Counted from the stretch's first letter, positions 3,630 through 23,145 are shown. The stretch: DNA of 24,801 nt from Bdellovibrio sp. (GCA_036676395.1 JAKFCY010000006.1:1-24801); one strand, 5' to 3'. Notes: generated by a model not told the origin, from the letters alone. Numbers and translations: made by a program.

Positions 3630-4075
3630 GTGTGCCTTGAATGGTGAATATAGGTCAATTAGTTGATCGTTCCAACGGGTAAAATGCGAAGCATTCATGA
3701 ACACCATTGAATACAAATACTTCGTGAATAAAGTCCCTTTAGCACGGGGGTAATCCCGTAGGGAAGGGAAAGGCTGTTCCGAAGCTAAGCAAGTGGTGGC
3801 GGTAGCTATCGGCATGGTTTACCGCGAGAGGACTGAGCGTTAAGAAAATATCCTGTGGATATTTTTAGTGAGGGGCCAGGCTGCGGACCAGCCTCCTTTT
3901 CTGCCTACTACTATAACTTTGTCATGGCTGAGAAGAAAAGGGTATGAATCGATGCTATCCTACTACCTCAAAACGCAACCTACAATCCAGTGAACCGCCG
4001 TATACGAGACCCGTACGTACGGTGGTGTGAGAGGCGCACCTCGTCAGAGAAATCTGGCGAGGCCGTCTACTCGAT
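3630..4075 (+). mobile_element. Internally deleted group IIC-like intron (5' end, last 37 codons of the intron-encoded protein, intact DV/DVI)
   Basis: 5' GTGTGCC; AADQPPFLPTTITLSWLRRKGYESMLSYYLKTQPTIQ* at 3880-3993; short DV ACCGCCGTATACG...CGTACGGTGGT with CGC triad; ends CTACTCGAT. Confidence 0.88.
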
Positions 4076-4120
4076 TACAAGCTGGGCTTCTGTCTGTGTT
4101 TGTATGTTCGTCAATAGCTG

Positions 4121-4792
4121 TCAAGTTTTTCCTTTAATTAATTTGTCAAGCTCGTTCGCATAGTTAGCAAGAATTAAATTTACTTCTTTCATTGAAGTTA
4201 CAAGGTTCTCAAAGTCAGGATATTTCTTTTGCAGCTCTTGTGGAGAAAGTCTCTTATTAATTTCTTCTTCCTTTGCGTTTTCAAGCCACTTACGAAACTT
4301 TGCGTGGTGTTCTGTCAAGTGCGGACGCAAACCATCATTTAATATTTTTCTTGTCAAGCCAATTAGTGCTTTTGTTGGGTCGTGGTCTTTCAAATATCTA
4401 CCCGGAACTGTTTTAATTTCGTCTCTTATGATGTTGAATAGCTTATACCAAGAGTCATAAATCTCTTCAATGCTGTCATTATTTTCGTCAATAAGTATTG
4501 CCGCCTTTCTTGTAGTTAATTCAATGTGAATTCGATTAGCGATGTATAAATTGTCGTGGTTACGTTCAACTTTAAAAACCATTTTAGGAGTTCCAGAAAT
4601 TTCGACTTCTAAATTTTGCCACCTGAATAATTTTGAAAATTGTCTTTTCAAAATTATCAGAGCAATTATGATAGCTAATATAATCCCTATGAAAATCCAA
4701 TCACTAGAAATTATTAGGGAAGGTTGTTTTCTTTCAAAAGCAACTCGAATAAGTTCGTGTGTTGAAGTGGTGTCTGTCATAGTTATTGCCAT
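4121..4792 (-). CDS. Single-TM hypothetical protein; candidate effector of the TIR operon
   Basis: TM segment WIFIGIILAIIIALIIL then a helical domain (IELTTRKAA, YDSWYKLF, LNDGLRPHLT); start overlaps the upstream TIR gene. Confidence 0.8.
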   Translation of the reverse strand: MAITMTDTTSTHELIRVAFERKQPSLIISSDWIFIGIILAIIIALIILKRQFSKLFRWQNLEVEISGTPKMVFKVERNHDNLYIANRIHIELTTRKAAILIDENNDSIEEIYDSWYKLFNIIRDEIKTVPGRYLKDHDPTKALIGLTRKILNDGLRPHLTEHHAKFRKWLENAKEEEINKRLSPQELQKKYPDFENLVTSMKEVNLILANYANELDKLIKGKT

Positions 4793-5337
4793 TTGTCACT
4801 GGTTCTATTGTTCGCAAAGATTGGATATGAATTGTCGGGCGTAATCTTGTTCCTGTCCTCAAATGCTTTGTGTATCCAACCTTGAACTTCCGCTGGATTT
4901 TTAGACCATTTATATAATTGTGCAAATCTATTTTTTTCATCTTTCCAATTGTCATAAAGTCTTGGAGGAATTGTATGTGGGTCAAATTTATTGTCGTTTA
5001 AAGGGTAGCTAGGCATGAAAATACCTAATAACCCAGAACGTGAATTAAATTGTGTTTGTCTTATACTTGAGCCAATTTCCCAATCAACGTGTTTTCGTTG
5101 CCAAGTGTTGTTTCCAATAAGCACAATGGTTACGGTAGAATCTCTTAAATATTCATCTCTAATTTTTTGTCTGATAGTTTCAGTTTGTAAGTTGGGAGCA
5201 ATTTCACCAATTTGAACTGATTTACTTATCATTATTTGGTGATAGTTTGCGAATAGTGCCTCAAATTGATTGCGATAAGTTTGGTCAGGCTCCGTATGGT
5301 GATAACTTACAAATACCTTATGAATGTTTGTTGCCAT
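4783..5337 (-). CDS. ThsB-like TIR domain protein (MTH538/DUF1863 type)
   Basis: KVFVSYHH, DSTVTIVLIG..TWQRKHVDWEI with the catalytic-position Glu. Confidence 0.88.
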   Translation of the reverse strand: MATNIHKVFVSYHHTEPDQTYRNQFEALFANYHQIMISKSVQIGEIAPNLQTETIRQKIRDEYLRDSTVTIVLIGNNTWQRKHVDWEIGSSIRQTQFNSRSGLLGIFMPSYPLNDNKFDPHTIPPRLYDNWKDEKNRFAQLYKWSKNPAEVQGWIHKAFEDRNKITPDNSYPIFANNRTSDKWQ

Positions 5338-5341
5338 ATTT

Positions 5342-5884
5342 TTAAAGTTTAAATCCTAAAAAGTTTATTGAATTACTTTCCTCACGTTCACGAGAATTAT
5401 TTATTTTGTATGCGTTATTAGTCCTGTTCCAGTAAGCATAGTTTACCTTGCTTTCAAAATCTCTTTCTAAATTTTCCCATTTCATACTAACTGCATATCC
5501 AGATTTTATATTGTCGGCTAATCTGTCAGGTACAGAATGACTGTCAGTTGGTAGGAAGATTGCCAAAAGCCCATTTGGCTTAAATGATTTCAAGGGGTCG
5601 TATGGATGGGTGTAACTTCGCAGGGATGCCCAAATCTCCCAGTCTATCCATTTTCGATATCCTGTTCTTGAACCAACTAAAACAACGGTCACGGAGCAGT
5701 TCCTCATTTTCTCACGAACCTTCTTATAAATTGTTTCATCTGTCAAGTGTCCAATGTCGTCTTTTAAAGAGTAGTCAGCCACTCTCATATTCGTAATGGT
5801 CTTGCGAAGTTTTGTCAAATATTTTTGGTCGTTGTCGTGATGGTAGCTCACAAAACAATTTCGTATTTTCTTTTCTATTGGCAT
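5342..5884 (-). CDS. ThsB-like TIR domain protein (MTH538/DUF1863 type)
   Basis: CFVSYHH..D, CSVTVVLVG..TGYRKWIDWEI. Confidence 0.88.
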   Translation of the reverse strand: MPIEKKIRNCFVSYHHDNDQKYLTKLRKTITNMRVADYSLKDDIGHLTDETIYKKVREKMRNCSVTVVLVGSRTGYRKWIDWEIWASLRSYTHPYDPLKSFKPNGLLAIFLPTDSHSVPDRLADNIKSGYAVSMKWENLERDFESKVNYAYWNRTNNAYKINNSREREESNSINFLGFKL

Positions 5885-6367
5885 TTATGAAGTAATTATT
5901 GCGTCCATAACGCCACTTAACGGGTGTACTGAACTACTATAGTTAGAAAACATTTTTCTTTCAAGAATAAGTTGTTTCTCTTGTCCTTGCTTCTTGATAA
6001 ATTCATTTATATCGTAAATATCTCGAATTATGGGTTTTGTTTTGATGTAATCAGGAAGGTCTGAATTTTTTATTCCTTTTAAAGTTAATGTTGCTAGGTC
6101 TGTTACATCATAGCCGTATCCAACTTCAAATGGAACCCATTTGGAAATCAATGTATTTGGAGAAACAATACAAAGCATATGTGTCGAACTTTTAATTCCT
6201 TTTTTAATGGCCGCAACAACAGCTTTAGGGTCGTTGTTTATGTCTGCTTGTTGTAATTCTTTATCAAACTCATCAAAGTAAACTGCTATGCCAACTGATA
6301 TTAAATAGTCAGCAATTTTTTTTGCCTCGTCTCTGTCACGTTTTTGGTGGCTTATAAATACTTTCAT
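5885..6367 (-). CDS. TIR domain protein (TIR_2-like)
   Basis: MKVFISHQ..D, VYFD, I..S.HMLCIVSPNT..SKWVPFEVG; ATG at 6367 (alternative TTG at 6376). Confidence 0.87.
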   Translation of the reverse strand: MKVFISHQKRDRDEAKKIADYLISVGIAVYFDEFDKELQQADINNDPKAVVAAIKKGIKSSTHMLCIVSPNTLISKWVPFEVGYGYDVTDLATLTLKGIKNSDLPDYIKTKPIIRDIYDINEFIKKQGQEKQLILERKMFSNYSSSVHPLSGVMDAIITS

Positions 6368-6412
6368 TTTTGTCAATAGTGTTTAATTGTTGATGTGTCG
6401 TCTGTTAGCCTT

Positions 6413-6547
6413 GCTTGTAACGTTTTGCAGCTACCTGAAGGGCGGGATTTTTACCACAAAACTACATTTGAAAAACTAATGTTTGTTTAACCACAAAACT
6501 GTCTTTGGAACACGAAACCCCGGCTTTTGGGTAGGTGCTGTTGCACT
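6413..6547 (-). repeat. attC-like site
   Basis: GCTTGTAAC-GTTTTGCAGCTACCTGAAGGGCGGG ... CCCGGCTTTTGGGTAGGTGCT-GTTGCACT; imperfect inverted arms around an AT-rich loop. Confidence 0.78.
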
Positions 6548-6798
6548 AAACCTGCGGTAGTTTCATATTCAATCTAAAATTTCTACTTTAGGTACGCTTA
6601 CGGTTCCAGATTTTAAAATTTTAACATTTGTAACCATCTGAAAGTCAAGCATTTGATTTTTTTTATTTTATGCGAATTTTTATAATTTAAATCACTGATT
6701 TTCAATTTCTTATAAGATTTTTCAATAGCGACGAAAAACCCATATATAAGGTGTCTCAATTCCGGTTCCCCCGAAAAAATCGGGGCAGGCAGTGCAAC
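6540..6798. other. Gene-less (non-coding) cassette
   Basis: Bounded by complementary GTTGCACT (6540-6547) and AGTGCAAC (6791-6798); no credible ORF inside. Confidence 0.62.
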
Positions 6799-6851
6799 AG
6801 CGGTTTCAATGTCCGTGCTACGCACTCGACGAAAACCTAGTTGTTATGTGC
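6791..6851 (-). repeat. Short attC-like site (about 50 bp between cores)
   Basis: AAC-AGCGGTTTC...GAAAACCTAGTT-GTT; a closely related right half recurs at about 10742-10772, 14699-14729 and 19401-19431. Confidence 0.7.
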
Positions 6852-6876
6852 TGGCATTGTATTAGGTTTCAACATG

Positions 6877-7422
6877 TCATACTCTATTTTTAACAATCAA
6901 TACTTCTTTTCCACTACCGTCTTCACCAATAAGGTATACTATTTTCATGTCTTTGTTTACGTTATTATAAACAACTCTTTTAAAACCCATTCTATGTTTA
7001 TTCTTTTCAAGTGGTTTTCCCCATAAAATTGTAAAATAAAAAGCAATAGTTCCATATTCAGAGGTTTCCATTGATATTGTGCCTTTCCATTGGTGATCGA
7101 TTTTTTCCGTATAATTATCGTGCATAGTTTGTTTGTGTGTAATTTCTAATTTGTTTTTTCTCAAATATTTAATTTCAGCCTCACCCATTGGTTTGTTGAA
7201 ATCAATTTCATCACCTTCTTTATCGATCCAATAGATGTCATATTTATTAGAAAGATTATTGAATTTTAAATAGGGTATCAGGATTTCTGTTATTAGTAGA
7301 ACAATACCTGTAGCAACAAGCGAAGTTATTATTGGTACTAGTAGTCCATCGGTTATGAAGCTTGAATCTTCGGTAATTGGAAAATATTCGCACCAAAGGG
7401 GAAAAAGATTTTTCATGTACAT
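6877..7422 (-). CDS. Hypothetical protein, N-terminal TM plus beta-rich domain
   Basis: TM LLVPIITSLVATGIVLLITEILI, then alternating beta-strand patterns; only gene between GTTATGTGC and GCACATAAC. Confidence 0.75.
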   Translation of the reverse strand: MYMKNLFPLWCEYFPITEDSSFITDGLLVPIITSLVATGIVLLITEILIPYLKFNNLSNKYDIYWIDKEGDEIDFNKPMGEAEIKYLRKNKLEITHKQTMHDNYTEKIDHQWKGTISMETSEYGTIAFYFTILWGKPLEKNKHRMGFKRVVYNNVNKDMKIVYLIGEDGSGKEVLIVKNRV

Positions 7423-7448
7423 AAATGTCTTGTGTTGGTTTTATGCTT

Positions 7449-7581
7449 GCACATAACGTTTTGCGGCTAAAAGAAGTGGCGGCTTTGGAACACTAAACCT
7501 TCTATACACACACTGTTTATTAATTGCACAACTGTTTATACTTGCACTTCTCCCGCCATTTTTTTAGGTGCTGTTATGAGC
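7449..7581 (-). repeat. attC-like site
   Basis: GCACATAAC-GTTTTGCGGCTAAAAGAAGTGGCGG ... CCGCCATTTTTTTAGGTGCT-GTTATGAGC. Confidence 0.8.
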
Positions 7582-7586
7582 CGTTT

Positions 7587-8231
7587 TTATATCAATCCTT
7601 TGTCTATTAGAAATTGTGTTTTAAACATTGAAAATTCTTTATCAGATTTTGCATTATCTATTATTTCGTCAAGAAGAATAGCTTGAAGTCCCACTGTTAG
7701 TTCTCGTGTATACTTGTCAATTAAATTTTGAAGTTCCTTTAATGCATCAGAACGCCTTTCAATTAGTTCTTTTCTGTTTAATTTTATTTCCTTCCATGTC
7801 AGCTCTCCTCTTTTACTGTCATTAATATGGAACAACATTGGGCCAAATGCCTGTAAATGTAAATCAACATCATCTTTATAAGGATTCAAAAGTTTACAAT
7901 TTTTATCTAATGTCGTTCTCTTATTGTTATTGCACCAATAACAAACAAATGATAAGTTATTCCAAGAAAATGTTAAACGTGGATAAACTGATTTAGGAAT
8001 TATATGTTCAACATCACCAGGATATTGATGAGTGATAAAACACTCGCAGTAAATACATTTTTCCTCTGTCTCAATCTTTACTTCAGTCTTAATGTCCGCA
8101 TGTCTGTAATGAGCTTGAACATGCGTTGGAACAGGTAGTCCAGAATTAATGAAACCCATTAATTGTTGTGTCCAATTTGGTCCGTTTACTAATAGAACGT
8201 TTGGTGCTGGTCTCTTTAATCGCTTTATCAT
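7587..8231 (-). CDS. HNH endonuclease, PtuB-like
   Basis: KCIYCE...DVEHIIPKS.YP.L.F.W.NL...C..CN..K, LLNPY.DD; 4-nt overlap with the ATPase gene. Confidence 0.87.
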   Translation of the reverse strand: MIKRLKRPAPNVLLVNGPNWTQQLMGFINSGLPVPTHVQAHYRHADIKTEVKIETEEKCIYCECFITHQYPGDVEHIIPKSVYPRLTFSWNNLSFVCYWCNNNKRTTLDKNCKLLNPYKDDVDLHLQAFGPMLFHINDSKRGELTWKEIKLNRKELIERRSDALKELQNLIDKYTRELTVGLQAILLDEIIDNAKSDKEFSMFKTQFLIDKGLI

Positions 8232-9475
8232 TTCTTTTTACTTTTTTCAATTAACGTTGCAACTGAAGTAGAAACATATTTATCTAGCCCTACTTTTTTA
8301 ATGTCAGACTTGAAGGATAAGATATTCTCTGGAGTAATACCAGAATCACTGTATTTTGTAATTATTTTGTCAAGTTCTTCGTCTACCCATTCAGGCATAG
8401 TTGTTTCAATCCCTAACACTTCCCTAAGAATGTCATTAGCGCTTCCAGATTTTTCAATATTTTCAAGAAGAATTGAGTCTACTTTACCATTAGCATTGTA
8501 ATTCAAAACAAAAACATTTGAGTCAGGAACTGAACTTATAATAAATGGATTATGAGTCGCAATAATAAATTGTACGTTTGGAAATGCTTTTAAAAAGTTG
8601 GGCAGAAGAGATTTTTGCATCTCAGGATGCAAATGATTTTCAGGCTCGTCTAATGTTACAACATATTCTTTTTGAGGTTCCTCAAACATATAAAGTTGCC
8701 AAGCAAGGTCTATAATTGAAGCTATTCCTCCAGAAACTGCATCTAAAGAGAAGTCTCCTGATCGAGTTATTAAAACTACTTCAGGTATTCGAATTGCTAT
8801 TTTCTCAAATCCTAACTTTGGAGGAAGGATTATTTTTAAAATTTCTTCAAATCCTCTAAAAATATTAACTGCCTCGCTATTTCTAATTACTACTTCATTT
8901 CCAAAGCCAAATGTTGCAAGTGAAATTAAAGTTTCCTTAATATGGTAGTTCTCGAATTTACCCCCACCACTTTGATACCGATTTACTTTTGCTTGATTAT
9001 ATTGGTTGTAAGCTTGTTGCTTTGTTATTACTTGGGTTGAAATATTTGAAATAGGTTGATATTTATAAACAGGTCTATGAGAAGGAATATGGAGGCCTTT
9101 TACAGCCTGCTGACCAGTGTAATTCAGATTATATGTTGTTCCTACTACTGCCGGAACGGTCAATTTGCATACTTTATCACCAACGTATTCTATGCTGCCA
9201 ACTTCAATATGATTATTTGGAATTTTGTCAATGTCATTTGAGTTGTCAAAAAGGGTTTTCCACATATCAGAGAAGAATTTCAACCCACCAGTTTTTTCAT
9301 CTCTAGTTGGTGTTCCAACGATTTCAGAAGGCCAGCCAAAATGTCGATTAACAGTATTCAATATAGTTGTTTTGCCAGCACCATTCGCACCAGTAAGTAT
9401 TGTCAGCCTTTTGTGAAAATCAATTTGAATATTTTCAAATTGCCTCCAATTTTTTATTGTTACCGATTTGAACAT
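8228..9475 (-). CDS. ABC/AAA ATPase, PtuA-like
   Basis: Walker A GANGAGKTT, signature VSGG, Walker B/D-loop LDEPENHLHP, H-loop IATHNP; likely start MFKSVTIKNWRQF at 9475. Confidence 0.88.
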   Translation of the reverse strand: MFKSVTIKNWRQFENIQIDFHKRLTILTGANGAGKTTILNTVNRHFGWPSEIVGTPTRDEKTGGLKFFSDMWKTLFDNSNDIDKIPNNHIEVGSIEYVGDKVCKLTVPAVVGTTYNLNYTGQQAVKGLHIPSHRPVYKYQPISNISTQVITKQQAYNQYNQAKVNRYQSGGGKFENYHIKETLISLATFGFGNEVVIRNSEAVNIFRGFEEILKIILPPKLGFEKIAIRIPEVVLITRSGDFSLDAVSGGIASIIDLAWQLYMFEEPQKEYVVTLDEPENHLHPEMQKSLLPNFLKAFPNVQFIIATHNPFIISSVPDSNVFVLNYNANGKVDSILLENIEKSGSANDILREVLGIETTMPEWVDEELDKIITKYSDSGITPENILSFKSDIKKVGLDKYVSTSVATLIEKSKKK

Positions 9476-9551
9476 TAGTTGTGTTTTTTGTTTAAAGTTG
9501 GTTAATCCAATTTTGTTATAAAACAATTATTTATCCCTGAAGTATTTTTTG

Positions 9552-9959: not shown

Positions 9960-9974
9960 AGTTTGTCTTTTTAA

Positions 9975-10772
9975 AATTCTGACTAACGAACCTCAAAAGT
10001 CTTAAAAATTTCAGCTGTTTTGAGGCCCAGAGCGTCTTCGGTGAGACCGTCCCGTAAGTTACGGGATGCTTCTTTGTCCTTTTAACTAATCCCAGCTTTC
10101 TTTTCTGATCCGGAAAAAGTTATCCTTCGGGGTTGATATCGGCAAGAAAGGGATTTTTAGGAACAAAAAAATACCCTGTACAGGGTATTTTTAGGCGTAA
10201 TAACTGGAAAACTGAAGGTTTTTGAAGAGAGTGGCCGTTTGAATCCGAGCTGTGCTTTAACCCGCATTATGCATTAGCATTTCTATTGCGGGCTAAAATT
10301 GCTTTAAAATCAGACACTTCGCTGCTGTTTTCGACTTCACTATAGCGGTGCTATGCCTCAGTCTCCAAACAGCCTGATTTTCTTGCTATTTTAACCCTTC
10401 CCGATAAAAATCGGGACAGGCTATAACGAAGCCTAATGCAAAATCCGGGTTTAAGTTCCGGGAAATAAAAATCCTAAAAGAGAGGTTAATACTGATTCTT
10501 GGGACTTGCTATCTGCGGGATTGTAGGTCGAAAATGGGGTATAATTGCACTTTTCGATTTCAAGAAATCTCAGGGTTCATGGGGGCAACTTGCTCCGGAA
10601 TCTCCAGGACTTACTAATCAATTTTTTAAAGTCTTACCAACACAAAAAGAACCCAAAATCTTACCCAATCCCCATAAGCACCTCATCGTTCCGATGGTAA
10701 TCGGGAAGCGCTTTCATTGTTCCCGCCGCAGCGGGCAAGCTGTGCTACGAACGCAACGAAAACCTAGTTGTT
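9975..10772. repeat. Long non-coding repeat, copy A (longest)
   Basis: Shares sequence with 14289-14729 and 19176-19431; begins AATTCTGACTAAC and ends in the short attC-like half GAAAACCTAGTTGTT. Confidence 0.85.
10260..10450. mobile_element. MITE with ACCC-starting terminal inverted repeats (IS982-like ends) and a TTA duplication
   Basis: ACCCGCATTATGCATTAG ... CTAATGCAAAATCCGGGT; the empty site GCTTTAAGTTCCGGG is present in repeat copy B near 14406-14420. Confidence 0.82.
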
Positions 10773-10786
10773 AGCTGCTGATGCTA

Positions 10787-12049: not shown

Positions 12050-12180
12050 GCAGCTAACGTTTTGCAGCTACCCGAAGGTGGCGATTTCGGAGCGATTCAC
12101 TGTCAATATACCACAGACTTTTATAGTTGCACAAAGCTTCAATTAACCACTGAACTCGCTTTTTTGCCAAACGCCTGTGT
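12050..12180 (-). repeat. attC-like site (chimeric arms), split by a group II intron
   Basis: GCAGCTAAC-GTTTTGCAGCTACC...; the right part matches the site at 22850-22898; followed by an intron 5' end. Confidence 0.7.
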
Positions 12181-12746
12181 GTGTGCCTTGAATGGTGAAT
12201 ATAGGTCAATTAGTTGATCGTTCCAACGGGTAAAAGGCGAAGCATTCATGAACTGGATAATCTGGACTAAAGTGAGCCACCTATTGAATACAAATACTTC
12301 GTGAATAAAGTCCTTTAAGCACGGGGTAGTCCCGTAGTGACGGGACAGGCTGTCCCGAAGCCAAGCAAGAGGTGCCGATATCTATCGGAATGGTTTACTG
12401 CGAGAGGACCGAGCGTTAAGAAAATATCCTGTGGATATTTTTAGTGAGGGGCCAGGCTGCGGACCAGCCCCCTTTTCTGCCTACGACTATTACTTTATCA
12501 CGCCTGAGAAGAAAAGGGTATGAATCGATGCTATCCTACTACCTCAAAACGCAACCTACAATCCAGTGAACCGGATTGGTGGTCAAGATCATCGGATTCT
12601 ACACTTAGGATCAATTTAGCGAAGTGCCGGAACGTATCCCGAAAGCTTTCGGGAGTGGTCTGCCTTCGGCAGATAAATGTGAGACTGTGCGCGCCGTGGC
12701 GTAGGCGCACCTCGTCAGAGAAATCTGGCGAGGCCGTCTACTCGAT
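12181..12746 (+). mobile_element. Internally deleted group IIC-like intron, DV disrupted
   Basis: Near-copy of 3630-4075 at the 5' end, protein tail and DVI (..GGCCGTCTACTCGAT); DV replaced by palindrome-rich sequence after GAACCG. Confidence 0.85.
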
Positions 12747-14006: not shown

Positions 14007-14162
14007 TTATTTCTCTAAGTCCAAATCGTCCAAAGGACTTCGAATCCCCTTTAATGCTTTCGTGCTTACATGTATATAGATTTCGGTAATCTTACTGCTT
14101 TTGTGACCTAATAGTTCTTGAATATAACGCAAATCTGTTCCCCTTTCCAAAAGATGAGTAGC
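14007..14162 (-). pseudogene. C-terminal remnant of a tyrosine recombinase (integron integrase-like)
   Basis: Manual translation [51 protein letters not shown]: box II LLGH and catalytic-position Tyr, plus an SPLD tail; in-frame stop immediately upstream. Confidence 0.88.
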
Positions 14163-14288
14163 TTACCTCTTCCGAAAACGAAATCTCCATTTGTCAGAAA
14201 AGGGAAAGAGGACCACGGGCGAGTAAGGAAGCAATCTCTTCATTTAGGAGATTGATTAGCCATAGGAATACCGGAGTAGTTTAGTTAC

Positions 14289-14729
14289 TATCGGCAAGAA
14301 AGGGGTTTTTAGAAACAAAAAAATACCCTGTATAGGGTATTTTTAGGCGTAATATCTGGAAAACTGAAGGTTTTTGAATAGAGTGGCCGTTTGAATCCGA
14401 GCTGTGCTTTAAGTTCCGGGAAGTGAAAATCCTAAAAGAGAGGTTAATACTGATTCTTGGGACTTGCTATCTGCGGGATTGTAGGTCGAAAATGGGCTAT
14501 AATTGCACATTTCGATTTCAAGAAATTCAGGGTTCAGGGGGGCAACTTGCTCCGGAATCTCCAGGACTTAATAATCAATTTTTCAAAGTCTTTCCAACAT
14601 AAAAAGAACCCAAAATCCGACCCCATCCCCATAAGTACCTCACCGTTCCGATGGTAATAGGGAAGCCCTTTCATTGTTCCCGCCGCAGCGGGCAAGCTGT
14701 GCTACGCACGCAACGAAAACCTAGTTGTT
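14289..14729. repeat. Long non-coding repeat, copy B
   Basis: Aligns to about 10137-10772 without the MITE. Confidence 0.85.
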
Positions 14730-14770
14730 GTGCGATCGCTTTCTTTCACTTCACTCTTTAGCTTCAATTA

Positions 14771-15211: not shown

Positions 15212-15270
15212 AAATCAATATTTTAGTTTATTGTAACAATTTATCACGCAAAGATTGACTTTGAAAGTGA

Positions 15271-15394
15271 CGCACAACGTTTAGCTATTTGCAGTGGGCT
15301 GGCTTTGAAAACGTATCTGTCCACCATGCCCAAAAGTAATAGCGAAGATAAAACTTTAAATTTACACTTCACCCAGCCATTGCAAATGTGCTGT
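15271..15394 (-). repeat. attC-like site, split by a group II intron
   Basis: CGCACAAC...ATTTGCAGTGGGCTGG ... CCAGCCATTGCAAAT-GTGCTGT|intron. Confidence 0.78.
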
Positions 15395-15957
15395 GTGTGC
15401 CCGGTATGGCACGGTAACGAAGTTACCACAAAATACCTAGAGGATGCAAGTTTCTTATGGGCAAGTTGGAGAAGCCCATTAGCAAACTCAAGCAGCTTAC
15501 CAAGAAGACTATCCGCCGCGGCGGATCGAAGAACTGCTCCGAAAGCTGGCAGAAGTATGGCGGGGATGGGTGAGCAATTACCGCCTAGCCAGTATCCATG
15601 CCAAACTAAAGGCCATCGATGAATGGTTGAGAAATGCGCAGCATTCATGAACACCATTAAAAATAAACTCATTGTGAATAAACCGGCTTCGCTACTGTAT
15701 TTGGTCCGCCGCGGCGGAGAAGAAACCTGAGCGAAAGCGCAAAAACCTGATCAGATTGGGAGTGGATCAAGACCATGCTTACGCATGGAAGGACTCAGCG
15801 TTAAGAAATGATCCCTTAGGATCATTTTAGCGAAGAGCCGGAACGTATCCCGAAAGCTTTCGGGAGTGGTCTGCCTTCGGCAGATAAATGTGAGACTGTG
15901 TGCGCCGTGGCGTATGCGCACCTCGTCAGAGAAATCTGGCGATGCCGTCTACTCGAT
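15395..15957 (+). mobile_element. Degenerate group IIC-like intron with fragmented maturase (domain X) remnant
   Basis: 5' GTGTGCCCGGTATGGC; KLAEVWRGWVSNYRLASIHAKLKAIDEWLRN (15543-15635), RLRYCIW (15684-15704), KKPERKRKNLIRLGVDQDHAYAW (15720-15788); DVI ends CTACTCGAT. Confidence 0.85.
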
Positions 15958-16740: not shown

Positions 16741-16741
16741 T

Positions 16742-16914
16742 CCAAACCTGTTCTATCACTTGGAGCTGGGATACAAATTAGCCTAACTTAATGAACTACT
16801 ATCTGACTGCATAATAAGAGCCGTATGAATCGAGAGGTTCACATCCTGTCCCGCTACTGCGGGGTAAGGTTCTGTGAGAGTTTTAGGGGTGGAATTCCCC
16901 TTTACCTTCTCGAT
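16742..16914 (+). mobile_element. Group II intron 3' remnant (AGC-triad lineage) with a protein tail
   Basis: PNLFYHLELGYKLA* (16742-16786), GAGCCGTATG DV at 16818, DVI ending CTCGAT; homologous to 2594-2702. Confidence 0.8.
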
Positions 16915-16948
16915 TGGCGGTTCGTTGTTTTATTATTTAAGCTATTAT

Positions 16949-17698
16949 TCAACTTTTTAAGCCTTTAAGATAAGCCTGATAATCTTCTTTCATTAATGCT
17001 TCGTCTGCTTTTCGTTTTACGGTAGCCTCGTTTCGGATATCAAACCAATTTGTTCCCATATTATCAACCCTTTGTTTTAATGCTGACAGATTGATATCTC
17101 TGCAATAAATAGAAGAACCTGGTTGCTGCTTCCATGATTGGGCAATCGTACCAATATCAAAAGGGTCAAAGCCTAATTCATCTACTAACTTAAATACAAC
17201 TTTTTTTGCTTTTGAATTATCAGATGAAATTGCAATAGCTATGCGGTTTTTATCGCTTTTTGGTTTGCCCATATCTTTCAGGCTTGTAGCAAGTATGGAA
17301 TTAAATGCTTTAACAACGGGAAACCCCAATTGCTCCTGAACCCAAAGACTATCTATGCCAGTATGATCAAGTTCAGTTATAAACCCATCACGAAGATTTG
17401 GGTAATAATTCATAGTGTCAATCACAACTACATCCTTCGAAAGGTTTTCAAAAATGTGCTTGAGATCAGGTGCATTTTTGGTAGGTATGGAGATAATGAT
17501 TACTTGTTTGTTTATAACTTCCTCAATAGTTACTGCCTCCGCTCCAATATCCTCCGTAAGTTTTTTTATGGAGGCTGGGCCACGGGAGTTAGCAATTGAA
17601 ACCGTATGTCTCATTTGAATAAGTTTTGATGCAAGGCAAATCCCCATTTCGCCTGAACCGATAATTCCTATATTCATAATTCGATTATTTATTGACAC
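16949..17698 (-). CDS. NAD(P)-binding oxidoreductase, F420-dependent NADP reductase-like
   Basis: IGIIGSGEMG Rossmann motif, IANSRGP, IDTMNYYP.RDG, VVKAFN; the true start may be the second Met. Confidence 0.87.
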   Translation of the reverse strand: MSINNRIMNIGIIGSGEMGICLASKLIQMRHTVSIANSRGPASIKKLTEDIGAEAVTIEEVINKQVIIISIPTKNAPDLKHIFENLSKDVVVIDTMNYYPNLRDGFITELDHTGIDSLWVQEQLGFPVVKAFNSILATSLKDMGKPKSDKNRIAIAISSDNSKAKKVVFKLVDELGFDPFDIGTIAQSWKQQPGSSIYCRDINLSALKQRVDNMGTNWFDIRNEATVKRKADEALMKEDYQAYLKGLKS

Positions 17699-17704
17699 TT
17701 CGGT

Positions 17705-18244
17705 TTAGCCTTGGGCAGAATGAAATTTCTCTTCATCTTTAGTCCTTGGGGCCCCAGTGCTGTTAGGCTGTCCTTTGCCAGTAGTAATCAAAGCCAACAA
17801 ACTTTGTCGGATATAGTGGTTCCATCCATTCGAACAAACATCAAAGCATTCATACTCCGGAACTAAACCAATGTGTGTGAAGCAGATTTGCGTTTTGTTA
17901 TCCTTTTCAAGGATTTCAAAAATAATTTTTGTACCCGTCCACTCGGCTTGGTCTTTTGTAAGTTTATTGTGATCAGGCAATTCATGAGCTGCCTCATTAA
18001 AAATTCCCGGTTTAAAATAGTTGTCCATCACAAGCCAGACGACTTTTTTGTTGACAATGGATTCTATTACTTTTATCTGACAACGATGAATATCTTCAAA
18101 ATGGTAATTAAACACATCATTGAGTTTGTCAGTACTGCCTTCAATTTCTTCCGACCACCATCCACGAGGGTTGTTGACGGCATTGAAAGCTTCCGTCGGA
18201 GTTTGGCTTACCAATATTGTAGTTGTAAAATCTGATTTTGTCAT
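17705..18244 (-). CDS. SRPBCC/AHSA1 domain protein
   Basis: WWSEEIEG, EWTGTKIIFEI, FTHIGLVP..ECF..CS.GW. Confidence 0.85.
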   Translation of the reverse strand: MTKSDFTTTILVSQTPTEAFNAVNNPRGWWSEEIEGSTDKLNDVFNYHFEDIHRCQIKVIESIVNKKVVWLVMDNYFKPGIFNEAAHELPDHNKLTKDQAEWTGTKIIFEILEKDNKTQICFTHIGLVPEYECFDVCSNGWNHYIRQSLLALITTGKGQPNSTGAPRTKDEEKFHSAQG

Positions 18245-18248
18245 TTCA

Positions 18249-18572
18249 TTAGTTGTTTAATTTGTTATTTAATAAATTTTGTAGATTGTTTAGTTTCGAT
18301 ATCCAGAATTTATCATAATAAGAAATCCAATTTTGCAGTTCATTGAATCCGTCCTGTTTGAGTATGCAATACCGCTCTCTTCCAATGTTCTGGATAGAGA
18401 TAAATCCTGCCGACTGCAATATTTTAATGTGTTTTGAAACTGCAGGTCGGCTCATTTCAAAATTTTCTGAAATGCTATTAATGTTGTAATTGTCTTTAGT
18501 AAGCATTTGTAAAATCTGTCGTCTGCTTGGGTCTGCAATTACTTGAAAAACATCAAGATTGGGAGTTGTCAT
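18249..18572 (-). CDS. ArsR/SmtB family transcriptional regulator
   Basis: DVFQVIADPSRRQIL, MSRPAVSKHIKIL, GRERY. Confidence 0.92.
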   Translation of the reverse strand: MTTPNLDVFQVIADPSRRQILQMLTKDNYNINSISENFEMSRPAVSKHIKILQSAGFISIQNIGRERYCILKQDGFNELQNWISYYDKFWISKLNNLQNLLNNKLNN

Positions 18573-18624
18573 AAATTAATGATTTAATTCAGTTTTTCAT
18601 TTATTCCGATATTCATTAATCGAA

Positions 18625-19056
18625 TTATTTTTTGGTGTTTATGATATCAAGCATTTGCTCGATTTTCTTCAACCAACCATCAGTCATACCGATAAAGATG
18701 TCTGTATTGTTTTCTCTAAAACCTGAATGTTTCAATTTCAATTTGGTTCCATTTTTGTGCGGTTCCAATGCCCACTCAACAATTGTATCGAGTGTAAAAA
18801 ACCCATCGCCAGAGCCACCCTTCCAAGTGTAGGTTAGCTTTTTCATTGGAATTATTTCAAGCACCTTGCAATGCATTATTCCGTCCAAATTAAGTGCAGG
18901 CATTGCTTTTGTTGTTAACTGAAACTCATGTCCGAGTTCAAGTTTGAAATTGTTTGGCATAAGCCATAAAGCGATCAGTTCAGCTTGTGTGAGATATTCC
19001 CAAACTTCGTTTGGAGATTGCTCATAAATCCATTCGTGGTTAATTTCTTTTTGCAT
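18625..19056 (-). CDS. SRPBCC/AHSA1 domain protein
   Basis: VWEYLT..ELIALWLMPNNF, L.YTW, T.L.L.HSGF; start MQKEI at 19056 because the longer ORF runs through the operator. Confidence 0.85.
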   Translation of the reverse strand: MQKEINHEWIYEQSPNEVWEYLTQAELIALWLMPNNFKLELGHEFQLTTKAMPALNLDGIMHCKVLEIIPMKKLTYTWKGGSGDGFFTLDTIVEWALEPHKNGTKLKLKHSGFRENNTDIFIGMTDGWLKKIEQMLDIINTKK

Positions 19057-19060
19057 ATTA

Positions 19061-19104
19061 TGTAACTTTGAAGTTACAAATATATGTGTAACTTTTGAGT
19101 TACA
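19061..19104. promoter_or_regulatory. Tandem palindromic operators TGTAACT-N4-AGTTACA (probable ArsR sites)
   Basis: Two perfect copies (19061-19078, 19087-19104) just upstream of the SRPBCC-ArsR operon. Confidence 0.75.
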
Positions 19105-19175
19105 CAAAATATTCTATGAAATTTTTTGGGATGATTATTGGAAGGAAGATAGATGCTTGTTTTGGTTGGTTTTTC

Positions 19176-19431
19176 AATTCTGACTAACGAACCTCAAAAG
19201 TCTTGAATTTCAGCTGTTTTGTGGCCCGGATCGTCTTCGGTGAGACCGTCCCGTAAGTTACGGGATGCTTCTTTATCCTTTTAACTAATCCCAACTTTCT
19301 TTTCTGATCCGGAATAAGGTATCCTTCGGGGTTGATATTGACAAGAAAGGTGTTTTTAGGTATGGAACCCTTTCATTGTTCCCGCCGTAGCGGTCAAGCT
19401 GCGCTACGCACGCAACGAAAGCTTAGTTGTT
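19176..19431. repeat. Long non-coding repeat, copy C (internally deleted)
   Basis: Matches about 9975-10161, joined to about 10705-10772. Confidence 0.85.
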
Positions 19432-19460
19432 ACCGGCTGCTCTTTTTATGCTCGTTCAAT

Positions 19461-20069
19461 TTATAAATCAATTGTCCTGAAAGTTAAGTTTATTCTTGGT
19501 TCGATTATTAGCTTTGTCGGGGGAAGTCTGTGTAGCCAATTTGTTTGGGTATTGTCTTTCATTACCAATAAACTACCGTGTTCTAAAATTAATGAAATGG
19601 TTTCTTTCGTTTCTTTGTGTTTGAAGGCAAATTTGCGTTCTGCTCCAAAACTTAACGAACCAATTGCTCCATTTTTCTTTAAATCTTTTTCTGCATCGCT
19701 ATGCCAAGCCATTCCTTCATCACCATTGTGGTATAAGTTGAGTAAGCAGGAATTGAATTTTTCGCCTGTTATTTCTTCCGTAAGTGATTTTAATTCTAAT
19801 AATTCCCTTGTCCAGGGTAAGGCTCGTTTTGTGGTGTTAGAATAGGTGTATTCAAAATTAGTATCACCATGCCAAGCTACTTTCCGTTTTGTAATTATTA
19901 GTTTTCCATAGATAATAGCCTGATCATTTTTCCACTCGATTGTATTCATTAAACAGTCGAAATAATGATTTGCCTCTTTGTTGGGCAATAGTTTTCCGTA
20001 ATAATTTACAACACCATCTTTGGGCAGTAAGTTTTTTGAGCCGTCTATTTTGTTATCGAATAAATCCAT
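19461..20069 (-). CDS. alkB: AlkB family alpha-ketoglutarate-dependent dioxygenase
   Basis: FNSCLLNLY..G..GMAWHSD (HxD), W.H.LP, RINLTFR. Confidence 0.92.
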   Translation of the reverse strand: MDLFDNKIDGSKNLLPKDGVVNYYGKLLPNKEANHYFDCLMNTIEWKNDQAIIYGKLIITKRKVAWHGDTNFEYTYSNTTKRALPWTRELLELKSLTEEITGEKFNSCLLNLYHNGDEGMAWHSDAEKDLKKNGAIGSLSFGAERKFAFKHKETKETISLILEHGSLLVMKDNTQTNWLHRLPPTKLIIEPRINLTFRTIDL

Positions 20070-20293
20070 TTTTTATATGCTGTTTTCATACAATGCCCAC
20101 AAGGTCTATAACCGTTTTTAAAAGCTTCACTTTCCGATGCAAAGAAAACTCTGTTTTCCCGTTTCATTCGTTTACCTGATTTACATTTTAGTGTTCCGTA
20201 TATTTTTAACTTTCCATTTCCTCCAAAGAAAATTTCTTTTTGCTTGATTTTCCTTCTTAAATCGCTATCGTTTATTTCAAGATGTTTTATCAT
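20045..20293 (-). CDS. Small Ada metal-binding domain protein
   Basis: IYG.L.C.SGKRMKRENRVFF.SE.EA...GYRPCGHC. Confidence 0.85.
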   Translation of the reverse strand: MIKHLEINDSDLRRKIKQKEIFFGGNGKLKIYGTLKCKSGKRMKRENRVFFASESEAFKNGYRPCGHCMKTAYKKWIYSITK

Positions 20294-20296
20294 TCT

Positions 20297-21016
20297 CTAA
20301 CTCAAAGCATCGTGAAAAATAATTCCCAGAGTGTGTCGCTCTCCACTATGGATTTCACTTACTCCATGTTTCATATTTACACGATAGTATCCTTTACTAC
20401 CTTTTACCGGTCTAAAGTTAGTTGTAAAAATCAGCATATCGCCTTTCATTGGTTTTAATACTATTGCTTTTGATTGTGCTCTTGGCGTTTGTTGGGTTAA
20501 TACAAATTCTCCACCTGTAAAATCTTGATCCGGCTCGTTTAAAAATAAAACGGTTTGAATTGGAAAATATACATCTCCATACAAATCTTGATGCAGGGTA
20601 TTGTGTCCGCCTTTACCATATTTCAAAATTAAAACGGTTGCTTTTGTTTGGTTATTTTCATTACACTGTTTCAGAAGATCCTGAAGTGTATCAGGAAAAA
20701 GCGTAGCGATATTTAGCACTTTCATCCAGGCGTTTGCAATTGGTGCAAGTTTGGGATATATGCTTTCTCTAATGCTTTGAATTAAATTAGGCAATGGATA
20801 ATTGAAATATTTGTATTCACCCAAGCCAAAACGGTAGCGTTCCATCACTACCGTTTTTCTGTAAGCATTTGGATTGTTATAATTCCTTATCAATTCGGTA
20901 CATTGCTCGTTTGTTAAGAGTTTTGGAATTATAGCAAACCCTTTTGCGTGCATTTCTTCAACTATATTTTTCCAGTCAATTGAGGCTATTTTTTCTTTTA
21001 CTTCAATATCTGTCAT
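20297..21016 (-). CDS. 2OG-Fe(II) oxygenase (DUF2086-like)
   Basis: LHQDLYG, FTGGEFVL, HGVS....GERHTLGIIFHDA. Confidence 0.88.
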   Translation of the reverse strand: MTDIEVKEKIASIDWKNIVEEMHAKGFAIIPKLLTNEQCTELIRNYNNPNAYRKTVVMERYRFGLGEYKYFNYPLPNLIQSIRESIYPKLAPIANAWMKVLNIATLFPDTLQDLLKQCNENNQTKATVLILKYGKGGHNTLHQDLYGDVYFPIQTVLFLNEPDQDFTGGEFVLTQQTPRAQSKAIVLKPMKGDMLIFTTNFRPVKGSKGYYRVNMKHGVSEIHSGERHTLGIIFHDALS

Positions 21017-21741
21017 AGTTTAACTGATGCTATTTCCAAAAATATTTCACACAATTCTTGGGGTTTGCTAAAAAAAGGTGAATGGCTGGTTTGCATTTTA
21101 TAAACCTTTTCGCAAACCATTTCTGTGTACATTTTTTGTTGAATAAAAGGGGTTACCGCTTTGTCTTTTGTACATTCTATATAATACCTGGGTACACTTC
21201 CGTATTTTTCGTTGGTGAGTTGCAATGGTGTAATTCCTGTTACTGCACTTTCGTGGCTTAGTATCATCCTAGCCATTTGGTATATATCATCATCACAATC
21301 GTGGTATAGTCCTTCTTTGTAAATTTCTGGTTGTAATGTATGGGAATTTGTATTTGGAAATCTTGTTACATAAGGTTTTAAAACACCATTAACGTCTTGT
21401 GAAGAATAATCTGCTTGTGTTTTTGCATTGGGAATTAAATATGCAGCAAGGTAAATTAATTTTTCAATTTTTTCAGGACGGTATTCTGCAACTTGCGAAA
21501 TCATAATCCCGTTTTTGCTATGCCCAACAAGTATTACCTGGTCATCAATGCCATCGATAAGTTTGCAAATTTCCTCTACTGTAGATTCTAATGTTACTTC
21601 TTTAATGGGAGTTTTATCTCGTCCCATTCCAGGCAAATCAATTGCGAATGCTTTGTGTCCTTGTTTTTCTAAAATTGGAACAACTTTGTGCCAATTCCAA
21701 GAGCTATGCCACGAACCGTGTATTAAAATAAATGTCTTCAT
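21013..21741 (-). CDS. Alpha/beta hydrolase (methylesterase-like)
   Basis: FILIHGSWH, DLPG.G, LVGHSKNG nucleophile elbow, D.AV, SHSPF. Confidence 0.88.
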   Translation of the reverse strand: MKTFILIHGSWHSSWNWHKVVPILEKQGHKAFAIDLPGMGRDKTPIKEVTLESTVEEICKLIDGIDDQVILVGHSKNGIMISQVAEYRPEKIEKLIYLAAYLIPNAKTQADYSSQDVNGVLKPYVTRFPNTNSHTLQPEIYKEGLYHDCDDDIYQMARMILSHESAVTGITPLQLTNEKYGSVPRYYIECTKDKAVTPFIQQKMYTEMVCEKVYKMQTSHSPFFSKPQELCEIFLEIASVKL

Positions 21742-21792
21742 TTTTTATTGTTTAAAAATTATAATGCAAAAATGCACATCATTAAAAAATAA

Positions 21793-21812
21793 TAAAACCC
21801 GAAACTTGCTAA
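21793..21812. promoter_or_regulatory. 20-bp motif TAAAACCCGAAACTTGCTAA, copy 1 (candidate regulator box)
   Basis: Identical to 22706-22725; about 50 nt upstream of the hydrolase start. Confidence 0.6.
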
Positions 21813-22669
21813 ATTAATTCTGAATGTGTTTTTGTTCCTTCCCAACCTATGATGGCTGTTTTTCTTGTATTTCCCCACATATACCCGCCAATTACTCCTG
21901 TAGATTGTATTACACGATGACAGGGAATTAAGAACGCAACAGGATTGCTTCCAATGGCAGTTCCTACTGCTCTTGAAGCATTTGGCTTCTCAATTTTATT
22001 GGCAATAGTTCCATAGGTTGTAAGCTGTCCCATTGGAATTTTTAAAAGTGTTTGCCATACTTTTAGTTGAAAATCAGTTCCTTTTAAGTGCAGTTTTATT
22101 TGATTCAATTTTGTCCAATCGTGTCTGAAAATGTATAGTGCATTTTGCTGAATTAAATCTACCATTTGTTTGTATTGAGCATTGGGAAAATGACTGAGCA
22201 TTGTTGGCAGTGCAACAGATTCATCATCGGAAAATGCCATATAACAAATTCCTTTTTCTGTTGATGCCACTAAAATGTTTCCAAAAGGGCTTTCTGCAAA
22301 GCTGTAATTTATAGCTAAATCTTTTCCGCCATTTTTATATTCGGCAGGTGTCATACCTTCTATGTTGATAAACAGGTCGTGTAAACGACCTGTGCCTGAA
22401 AGTCCAGTTTCGTGTGCCGTTTCAAAAAGTGTTGCTTGATTTTCTTTTAATAAAGTTTTAGCGTATTCTACGGTTGTATATTGCAAAAATTTCTTTGGAC
22501 TTGTTCCTGCCCATTCGCTAAAGAGCCGTTGAAAATGAAATGAGCTTAGATGAACCTTCTTTGCAACTTCGTCAAGATTGGGTTGCTCTTTAAAGTTTGT
22601 TTTTATATACTCAATTGCTTCAGCAATTCTTTTATAATTGATATTTTGTTGTTCGGTCATTGTATTCAA
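21809..22669 (-). CDS. ada: Bifunctional AraC-HTH / methylated-DNA-protein-cysteine methyltransferase (Ada-like)
   Basis: HFQRLF..WAG.SPK HTH; GTDFQLKVW, ASRAVG.A...NP, IPCHRV active site. Confidence 0.9.
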   Translation of the reverse strand: MNTMTEQQNINYKRIAEAIEYIKTNFKEQPNLDEVAKKVHLSSFHFQRLFSEWAGTSPKKFLQYTTVEYAKTLLKENQATLFETAHETGLSGTGRLHDLFINIEGMTPAEYKNGGKDLAINYSFAESPFGNILVASTEKGICYMAFSDDESVALPTMLSHFPNAQYKQMVDLIQQNALYIFRHDWTKLNQIKLHLKGTDFQLKVWQTLLKIPMGQLTTYGTIANKIEKPNASRAVGTAIGSNPVAFLIPCHRVIQSTGVIGGYMWGNTRKTAIIGWEGTKTHSELI

Positions 22670-22705
22670 ATTTATAATACGAAGTTCGATATAAATTTGT
22701 CATCA

Positions 22706-22725
22706 TAAAACCCGAAACTTGCTAA
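22706..22725. promoter_or_regulatory. 20-bp motif TAAAACCCGAAACTTGCTAA, copy 2 (candidate regulator box)
   Basis: Identical to 21793-21812; about 40 nt upstream of the ada start. Confidence 0.6.
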
Positions 22726-22769
22726 TTTTTAGTTCGTATGTTGAGTGTAAACAGTGTCGTTGCAGAGTT

Positions 22770-22898
22770 GCCGATATGGGTTCGGGGCTTGGCGAATAAT
22801 CGGATTTCGAAGCGCTAAACTGTCTGTCAGCACTGAACTTGATACGAAGCGCAAAGCTTCAATTAAGCATTGAACCCGCTTTTTTACCAAACCGCTGT
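22770..22898 (-). repeat. Degenerate attC-like site followed by an intron 5' end
   Basis: GCCGATATG (decayed partner of GTTACCGGC at 19429) ... TTTTTACCAAACCGCTGT|GTGTGCC. Confidence 0.6.
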
Positions 22899-23145
22899 GT
22901 GTGCCTTGAATGGTGAATATAGGTCAATTAGTTGATCGTCCCAACGGGTGAAATGTGAAGCATTCATGTACAGCATTGAATTCATATACTTCGTGAATAG
23001 AGTCCCTTAAGCACGGGGGTAATCCCATTGGGACGGGAGAGGTTGTCCCGAAGCCAAGCAAGTGGTGCCGATATCTATCGGAATGGTTTACTGCGAGGGG
23101 CCAGGTTGCAGGGTAGGCAGAAAAGGGGGCTGGTCCGCCACGGCG
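22899..23145 (+). mobile_element. 5' fragment of the same group IIC-like intron; 3' end lost, short inverted piece of protein tail
   Basis: GTGTGCCTTGAATGGTG... matches 3630 and 12181; GTAGGCAGAAAAGGGGGCTGGTCCGC is the reverse complement of about 12459-12485. Confidence 0.8.

Follow-up and report, generated by a model that had tools for sequence, protein, structure and literature searches.

Probable relics of attC-targeting group IIC introns in a cassette array of Bacteroidota

Group II introns of class C that target integron cassettes (IIC-attC introns) are described as inserting into the bottom strand of attC, at the R'' box and within TTGT/T (PMC7923331), where they lie opposite to cassette transcription and separate a gene from its attC (PMC3001079, PMC7923331). 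A chimeric attC has been described at one of them, Kl.pn.I3 (PMC5027574), and in the model of Leon and Roy, as cited in PMC7923331, cassettes were formed by recombination between IIC-attC intron copies. Here we describe four short elements in a 24,801-nt stretch of DNA (GCA_036676395.1, JAKFCY010000006.1:1-24801, listed as Bdellovibrio sp.), called the window below, which corresponds to C54:7301-32101 of a 4.64-Mb, 42% GC assembly of 140 contigs. The elements (copies 1-4, Table 1) interrupt attC-like sites of a cassette-like array and are very probably the decayed remains, no longer autonomous, of a family of attC-targeting group IIC introns common in the genus and in other Bacteroidota. With S.ma.I2, Kl.pn.I3 and their relatives in class 1 and chromosomal integrons this family shares the antisense orientation, the R'' position and a TTGT/T-type target; by target and orientation it behaves as IIC-attC introns. 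Such introns are known to behave in this way; here the bacterial group is new, and the window holds only wrecked copies.

All four elements begin with GTGTGCC on the + strand, antisense to the cassette genes, exactly where a first-pass annotation made from the sequence alone had placed them. The 5' flanks of copies 1-4 end in GCGGT, CTGTGT, GCTGT and GCTGT. The three preserved 3' ends read ...CTACTCGAT and continue into TACAAG, TATGCA and TATGCC, giving the junctions GGT/TA, TGT/TA, TGT/TA and TGT/ (the slash marks the insertion point). Removing these three copies restores a GT/TA core, as the annotation had proposed, and the extra GT that it had seen before copy 2 is present. Between the intron 3' end and the stop codon of the upstream cassette ORF there are 45 nt in copy 1, 10 nt in copy 2 and 240 nt in copy 3. 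The proposed target, GT/T in the R'' box, agrees with the TTGT/T described for IIC-attC introns (PMC7923331, PMC3001079). Kl.pn.I3, which is carried by an IncN plasmid some 90 nt away from the stop codon of blaIMP-4, shows the same junctions, CTTTGT/ and /TAGAAA.

Largely right in its reading, the annotation erred in taking three of the elements as complete; none of them is. Against Rfam, domains V and VI are recognised only at 3993-4075 in copy 1 (Intron_gpII, RF00029, 41.7 bits with a gathering threshold of 40), which is the sole gathering-level group II match in the window; copies 2, 3 and 4 give no match to these domains at E<=1, and domain V strands are found in copy 1 only. The Rfam models of domains I to IV match no copy at E<=1 apart from one chance-level hit to D1D4-4 in copy 3 (15438-15549, 22.2 bits, cut-off 49, E 0.31). 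A motif search for the hairpin of exon-binding site 1 (EBS1; GATGAGGU..CACAN..) finds it in none of the four copies, and all of them are without an intact reverse-transcriptase gene and without the ribozyme from distal domain I to domain IV.

What remains can nevertheless be placed on a full-length relative of 1873 nt. Copy 1 maps to its positions 1-55, 53-118 and 1702-1873, plus slightly more of domain I, and carries in addition a ~48-nt insertion, a 42-nt insertion and a 26-nt inverted segment. Its protein remnant (3874-3990) equals residues 388-426 at 77% identity (tblastn), and its domain V reads AACCGCCGUAU compared with the consensus gaGAGCCGUAU. Copy 2 is of copy-1 type over its positions 1-393 (87%) and identical to copy 1 over its last 44 nt; between them, at positions 394-522, a 129-nt patch of copy-3 type replaces domain V (82% identity globally, 96.5% over 143 nt by BLAST). 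Its protein remnant, 12450-12566, covers the same residues 388-426. In copy 3 some 75 nt of 5' end run straight into the thumb/maturase portion of the protein gene, which maps to positions 1401-1551 and 1549-1652 of the relative and to residues 309-381, with a GIIM match at 15522-15635 (24.7 bits); its 3' part consists of a degenerate 3' strand of domain V with tiny hairpin insertions, followed by a domain VI with an insertion. Copy 4 loses homology at about 23146 and is without a 3' end and without the 42-nt hairpin. ORF-less and degenerate introns (ORF, open reading frame; Simon et al. 2008, via PMC4424553) have likewise lost a protein gene of which remnants persist, in a lineage with intact relatives. 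As described in PMC4424553, however, they usually keep a complete ribozyme and splice, whereas the window relics have lost distal domain I to domain IV and mostly domain V.

Elsewhere in the genome the family has left a longer 5' fragment on contig C126 (flank ..AACCGCTGT/); on C50 (/TAGCGG) and C90 (/TATGCA) the pieces left are truncated at the 5' end. Genome-wide, each readable family junction is GT/ (5/5) or /TA (5/5). The assembly yields no intact intron protein: GIIM gives two matches, both fragments, and tblastn with the relative's protein retrieves fragments only. A full-length parent, whose search the first-pass annotation had suggested, was not found in the window's own assembly; full-length members of the family occur in relatives.

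Table 1. Positions and traits of the intron relics, attC-like sites and small insertions in the window (z, folding score relative to shuffled sequences)
Feature	Position	Strand	Description
Copy 1	3630-4075	+	446-nt relic with internal deletion; 5' end, proximal domain I, two small insertions, ~39 last codons, domains V-VI
Copy 2	12181-12746	+	566-nt mosaic relic; domain V lost; extra GT at 12179-12180
Copy 3	15395-15957	+	563-nt relic, second subfamily; 5' end GTGTGCCCGG..., matches subfamily-2 introns, e.g. locus L064
Copy 4	22899-23146	+	~248-nt 5' fragment, copy-1 type (89%, repeat family D3); ends in palindromic GGTCCGCCACGGCGGACC
attC-like site upstream of copy 1	3500-3629	+	R' complement CCATAAC at ~3502-3508; 3' arm ends GCGGT at 3629
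attC-like hybrid site upstream of copy 2	12050-12180	+	arms non-complementary; no closing stem; z +0.25
attC-like site upstream of copy 3	15270-15394	+	R' complement GCACAAC; 3' arm ...CCAGCCATTGCAAATGTGCTGT; z -1.39
attC-like site upstream of copy 4	22772-22898	+	3' arm ...CCGCTTTTTTACCAAACCGCTGT; repeat family D18; z -0.2
Empty attC-like site	6413-6545	+	TTGTAAC ... GGGTAGGTGCTGT/TGCAC; closed hairpin; z -1.94
Empty attC-like site	7447-7580	+	CACATAAC ... GGTGCTGT/TATGAG; CATAAC pairs with GTTATG; z -2.17
3'-terminal domain V-VI fragment, other group II type	2585-2703	+	Rfam 21.9 bits, E 0.1 (weak)
Second copy of that fragment	16796-16914	+	20.1 bits; 87.5% identical to the first; repeat family D13
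~48-nt insertion (repeat family D8), in domain I	3682-3732, 12259-12309, 22951-23001	+	within GGGUGAAAGUCCC; TGCGMAGCATTCATGAACACCATT...GTGAATAAA
42-nt hairpin insertion	3832-3873 (also 12408-12449)	+	flanked by GAGG repeats; copy 4 and the C50 copy lack it

When 40 relatives were searched with copy 1 by BLAST, full-length elements were found. Such introns, 1.85-1.93 kb long, occur within the genus and also elsewhere in Bacteroidota; the window genome belongs to the genus of genomes that carry them, and the related loci include Algoriphagus and other Cyclobacteriaceae. The reference intron (G021:C10, locus L044), 1873 nt long, starts with GTGTGCCTTGAATGG.. after GATGT and ends with ..CTACTCGAT before TGCC. 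Rfam recognises it through D1D4-3 (77.8 bits), D1D4-1 (45.1) and Intron_gpII for domains V-VI (41.2). Its protein of 426 aa (P0001) matches RVT_1 (139.5 bits) and GIIM (46.3 bits) and has no endonuclease domain. In class C introns the catalytic triad of domain V is CGC instead of AGC. Domain V of the window family begins with CCGCCGUAU, as in six of seven terminator-type class C references; Kl.pn.I3 has the similar CCGCCCUGU. Together with the endonuclease-less protein, this bears out the group IIC-type assignment of the first-pass annotation.

The target rule of the family was read from 79 related loci in public genomes, the rest at each end being cut by contig ends or missed by the search patterns. 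TGT precedes the intron at 42 of the 44 readable 5' junctions, and the remaining two directly follow another intron copy; T follows it at all 23 readable 3' junctions (13 TG, 10 TA). The upstream arms of the family also repeat the att arms of the window: the arm ..CCGCCTTTTGGGTAGGTGCTGT/ is occupied in L059, L065, L076 and L077, and a near-identical arm is empty at 6541. In L077 (genome G018) a full-length intron, ...CCGCCTTTTGGGTAGGTGCTGT/GTGTGCC, sits in an arm that is nearly that of the empty site 6413-6545. Head-to-tail intron tandems occur in L114 and L122, from Saprospiraceae and Schleiferiaceae genome bins, where an intron starts right after the ..CTACTCGAT of the other copy.

Class C introns insert behind a DNA hairpin and use a short IBS1 (intron-binding site 1) but no IBS2. 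A putative EBS1 loop (..CACAN..), placed by the Rfam D1D4-3 alignment on the A-rich loop of the model consensus, is detected in 21 of 44 introns. It holds ACA in 21/21, ACAG goes with C at position -4 in 5/6, and pairing at -4 is seen overall in 10/21. Position and partial covariation fit a putative pairing of 3-4 bp between EBS1 and IBS1, the latter being (C)TGT.

Read on the + strand, the attC-like sites between the ORFs start with ..YTAAC and end with ..GT/TR; by manual reading, R'/R'' cores (RYYYAAC and GTTRRRY) are seen at about a dozen boundaries. Both empty sites of Table 1 fold as long imperfect hairpins closed at their ends, which fits the R'/R'' architecture of attC, and their cores are GCTGT/TGCAC at 6541/6542 and GCTGT/TATGAG at 7574/7575. 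Further intron-free cores of the type GTTGT/TA or GTTGT/TG lie at 6844/6845, 10771/10772, 14728/14729 and 19430/19431, and GT/T recurs at intron-free sites on contigs C50 (twice), C110 and C56. Intron-free orthologues of the cassettes adjoining copies 1 and 2 were found in 0 of 120 other genomes of the genus with either query, and the empty-site comparison therefore rests on these paralogous sites. Neither of the two outcomes that the first-pass annotation had named as refuting its reading was observed: the empty paralogous sites read GT/T, and every readable junction of the family in the genome is GT/ or /TA.

The first-pass annotation had also placed the elements right after a hairpin, which holds in part. 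The two empty sites do close in this way, but upstream of the four introns the occupied sites do not fold better than shuffled sequence (z -0.5, +0.25, -1.4 and -0.2), and the two arms of the copy 2 site do not complement each other. At the copy 1 site an end-closing stem of CGCAAATAC with GTATTTTGCG appears in both the minimum-free-energy and the centroid fold, yet z is only -0.48; the remaining R'' box (TACAAG) resumes after the intron at 4076. The 3' arm of the copy 2 site forms one site family with the copy 4 arm and an empty site on C56 (...GCCAAACGCCTGT/ATGCGC), and this empty paralogue folds into a long closed hairpin. An arm resembling that of the copy 3 site precedes a full-length intron in L082.

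The likely recombinase of the array, 382 aa long, is encoded outside the window at C50:1110-2258, co-oriented with its cassettes. With 218.7 bits it stays below the cut-off (265) of the NCBIfam integron-integrase model TIGR02249 (integrase_gron), which it matches in two stretches with model positions 179-238 skipped; on a XerA/integron-integrase model it reaches 230 bits. A sub-cut-off recombinase with skipped positions adjoins the intron-bearing arrays in 4/4 relatives searched, and a C-terminal fragment of such a gene lies within the window array (14022-14177, - strand). Despite this low-scoring recombinase, the strict TGT/T rule offers independent evidence that the spacers behave as attC-like single-stranded hairpins.

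From the family as a whole and from published IIC-attC work, a course of events can be proposed. Introns of ~1.87 kb encoding an endonuclease-less reverse transcriptase/maturase would have reverse-spliced into the single-stranded bottom strand of attC-like sites, entering at the gene-proximal R'' box between TGT and T, where the EBS1 loop (..CACAN..) of distal domain I would pair with TGT. In the window copies the protein gene and most of the ribozyme (distal domain I with EBS1, and domains II to IV) were subsequently lost, as was domain V in two of three, and small hairpin insertions were gained. As introns they are probably unable to splice or move today.

How the relics came to be where they are may owe much to gene conversion or homologous recombination between copies, to deletions and to cassette rearrangement. 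A 48-nt insertion in domain I is common to copies 1 and 2 and the 5' parts of copy 4 and of the C126 fragment, and copies 1 and 2 also agree in one large deletion and in the 26-nt inversion. From these shared features, copies 1, 2, 4 and C126 appear to stem from one already-deleted allele; and since this allele is without the EBS1 loop that a mobile copy needs, separate retrohoming events are doubtful. The flanks tell a similar story. In another species, genome G021 holds relics of the same architecture (420 and 476 nt) at att sites of its array, and the 90-nt att-side flank of one of them is 75% identical to that of copy 1, whereas the gene-side flank, at 52%, is unrelated. Copies 2 and 4 are 73% identical in their 5' (att-side) flanks versus ~50% for unrelated pairs. 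The shared flanks, the mosaic copy 2 and the non-pairing arms at 12050-12180 point to recombination or conversion with deletions rather than to four retrohoming events. The repeated, heavy insertion proposed by the first-pass annotation thus stands as four elements at the same att position, but not readily as four independent events; judged from the sequences, one dead allele that spread or was converted at the DNA level accounts for part of the apparent colonisation. This pattern is compatible with the published idea that introns re-pair genes and attC sites, though it does not by itself demonstrate that model.

Several points weigh against the account given so far. The EBS1 assignment is putative, depending on the alignment position in D1D4-3 and on a covariation that is partial, with only 10/21 at -4. 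A repeated full-length intron may have remained unassembled among the 140 contigs, as the full-length intron of relatives often forms its own contig of ~1.85 kb, and the statement that there is no intact copy applies to this assembly. The label 'bottom' strand is taken from gene orientation alone. Finally, relics of the same architecture at the att sites of another species (420 and 476 nt) could be read as mobility of the deleted form.

Where the family belongs among class C introns is less clear than what it targets. Kl.pn.I3 resembles subfamily 2 of the window family at its 5' end (GUACGCCCAGCAUGGGCA), but its protein is only ~35-42% identical to those of the family; moreover, the window family has Bacteroidota hosts, an adjoining recombinase co-oriented with the cassettes, and in the window relics instead of intact copies. 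In an unrooted protein tree of 35 rows (three of 30 family loci dropped for short ORFs), the Bacteroidota-centred family forms its own clade on a branch of 1.28 with 100% support. Kl.pn.I3, the one attC reference, groups with proteobacterial terminator-type introns on a long branch of 1.41 (Shimodaira-Hasegawa-like approximate likelihood-ratio test, SH-aLRT, 95-96). A joint clade of Kl.pn.I3 and the window family is not rejected by the approximately unbiased (AU) test (p 0.227), and a tree with one attC reference cannot decide between membership in the classical IIC-attC lineage and convergence.

Seven terminator-type class C introns served as further references: among them are those of Klebsiella IncC, E. 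coli IncF, P. putida, B. thuringiensis, C. felsineum and E. faecium plasmids, and of Anoxybacillus. They agree with the window family in size, in the endonuclease-less protein, in the 3' end CUACUCGAU and, judging from the empty att sites, in insertion after a hairpin. Five of the seven (not E. coli IncF and Anoxybacillus), including two of the three proteobacterial introns grouped with Kl.pn.I3, follow a GC hairpin with a T-run, and the 3' exons of the references begin with C or T. In contrast, the window family inserts after TGT in att arms and is followed by T.

A more far-reaching possibility, which we entertain only tentatively, is that a Bacteroidota-wide class C lineage became specialised independently of the IIC-attC introns of proteobacteria, its targets being attC-like sites in an integron-like system whose co-oriented recombinase is without model stretch 179-238, and that its dead copies live on as portable homology through which genes and att arms are paired anew. 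The latter part is suggested by the mosaic copy 2, the hybrid att site at 12050-12180 and the shared att arms beside unrelated genes. The window array resembles the model of Leon and Roy in the differing relationships of att-side and gene-side flanks (copy 1 and G021, copies 2 and 4, the mosaic copy 2). It differs in that no partner intron copy behind an ordinary terminator is shown for this subfamily in the genome. If true, the tentative reading would provide natural evidence for intron-mediated cassette remodelling.

It is improbable that the relics have been retained for a service to the array, for example by carrying promoters that point outward into the following cassette or by insulating cassettes or terminating transcription between them. 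Outward promoters are described in the 5' part of IIC-attC introns such as S.ma.I2 (PMC3001079). The 5' 200 nt are also the best conserved part among copies 1, 2, 4 and C126 (87-99%). The Bacteroidota-type promoter motif, TTG-N17-21-TAnnTTTG, however, occurs on the cassette strand once in the window, outside the relics; none of the 17 matches to TAnnTTTG on that strand lies inside a relic, and the relics bear varied insertions and deletions, as under neutral decay.

Less probable still is that the short elements remain mobile as mini-introns, moved in trans by the protein of a full-length relative with one retrohoming event per copy. Three copies do have intact termini (GUGUG at the 5' end, ..CUACUCGAU at the 3' end), the domain V-VI core of copy 1 (3993-4044) is identical to that of the full-length relative with only the distal loop of domain VI differing, the same deleted architecture is found at different att sites of two species, and ORF-less bacterial introns are described in genomes with related proteins (PMC4424553). 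But with the EBS1 hairpin and the D1D4-3/D1D4-1 region missing from all copies the RNA could not select or invade a target, domain V is gone from two of three, the assembly has no cognate protein, and the mosaic copy 2 and the shared exon flanks of copies 2 and 4 fit DNA recombination better than cDNA insertion. That the elements are no introns at all, and instead att-associated repeats or fragments of some other mobile element, is hardly credible: only one of four reaches the Rfam threshold and unrelated small repeats run throughout them, yet both ends are collinear with full-length introns, the protein-gene remnants are in order and the junction rule is identical.

As decayed remnants of such introns, the four elements widen the range of attC-targeting group II introns, which now takes in chromosomal cassette arrays in Bacteroidota (Cyclobacteriaceae and others); judged by titles and abstracts, a literature search on Bacteroidetes integrons with attC and group II introns and on integrons of Algoriphagus gave no report of this. 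They further show the fate of such introns after protein loss: the ribozyme core is deleted, sequence is converted from one copy to another, and tiny hairpin repeats move in. For annotation, relics of 250-570 nt are invisible to intron finders based on the reverse transcriptase and mostly to Rfam too.

The window holds further intron debris of another group II type that the first-pass annotation had overlooked, two 3' fragments of ~115 nt (Table 1) whose domain V begins with GAGCCGUAU and carries the same inserted 23-nt GC hairpin. The fragment at 2585-2703 abuts the stop codon of a - strand ORF (2702-3523), and that at 16796-16914 lies within an att site, ~11 nt before a GTTGT/T core; paralogues are found on C139, C75 and C140. 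A second class C subfamily (42-48% protein identity) is present in the genome as dead or ORF-less copies, on C86/C127 (split), C91 and C121; those on C86/C127 and C121 are the only longer class C pieces of this genome. At C121:~300-1091 an ORF-less class C intron stands beside a tRNA gene, with 131.7 bits on D1D4-3, a D1D4-1 match and sub-threshold domains V-VI. The gene split over two contigs (C86:37841-38418 and C127:2274-3028) encodes an intron protein, and a large serine recombinase ORF runs into the intron.

The relics themselves have been visited by several small sequences. The ~48-nt block follows GAAA in domain I of copies 1, 2 and 4; in copy 3 it follows GAGAAA inside the protein-coding remnant (15632-15682), and the full-length relative has it at neither place. 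Its core motif occurs genome-wide only in these copies (three exact-pattern matches), and either a tiny insertion element or template switching may explain the block. A protein gene near the 5' end of copy 1 was considered and dropped, as the shared 48-nt block is an insertion and not the end of an ORF.

The 42-nt hairpin belongs to a ~66-nt element (AGGACYGAGCGTNAAGAA-stem-loop-stem-TTAGYGARGRGCCRG..GCAGGG..; L034, L035, L036, L067), whose stem sequence varies between copies while pairing is kept and which has no match in Rfam. It occurs in domain I of the relics and, by itself, in three other genomes; in a relative's intron it interrupts the protein gene, at a place that matches its position in copy 3. 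For this reason the hairpin with GGCCAGG.. was rejected as a native part of domain I.

Very small GC hairpin modules (..CCTGTCCCG-N4-9-CGGGA..) number 25 in the genome, in at least five sequence contexts, and those of the window are at 2636-2658, 10399-10425, 12334-12356 (- strand) and 16847-16869. In a G021 relic (locus L046, 13480-13560) three separate hairpins of 21-23 nt interrupt one domain V with intact flanks. These modules recall the very small dispersed repeats described in cyanobacteria. Another recurrent unit, the 12-nt palindrome CCGCCGCGGCGG, has 53 sites in the genome, where chance expectation, estimated from base composition at 42% GC, is well below 1. It lies at 15513-15524 and 15706-15717 in the window, with a variant at 23133-23144, and is found in frame within the apparently intact intron protein gene of the relative L064.

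Nearly all sizeable ORFs from ~2.6 kb to the right end of the window are on the - strand and cassette-like. Their products include Cass2, three ThsB/TIR proteins, AAA_15 plus HNH, DUF4145, SnoaL-like, ArsR, AHSA1, 2OG oxygenases and Ada-like proteins. Defence-type genes are found at 4783-6376 and 7587-9526, with three consecutive ThsB/TIR-domain proteins and an AAA_15/AAA_21 ATPase accompanied by an HNH nuclease. A noncoding unit of ~0.8 kb between att cores (..CTGACTAAC and GTTGT/TA) has three to four complete or partial copies, at 9969-10780, 14284-14737 and 19170-19439 and where contig C54 ends on the right; the unit might be a cassette without an ORF or an RNA of unassigned type.

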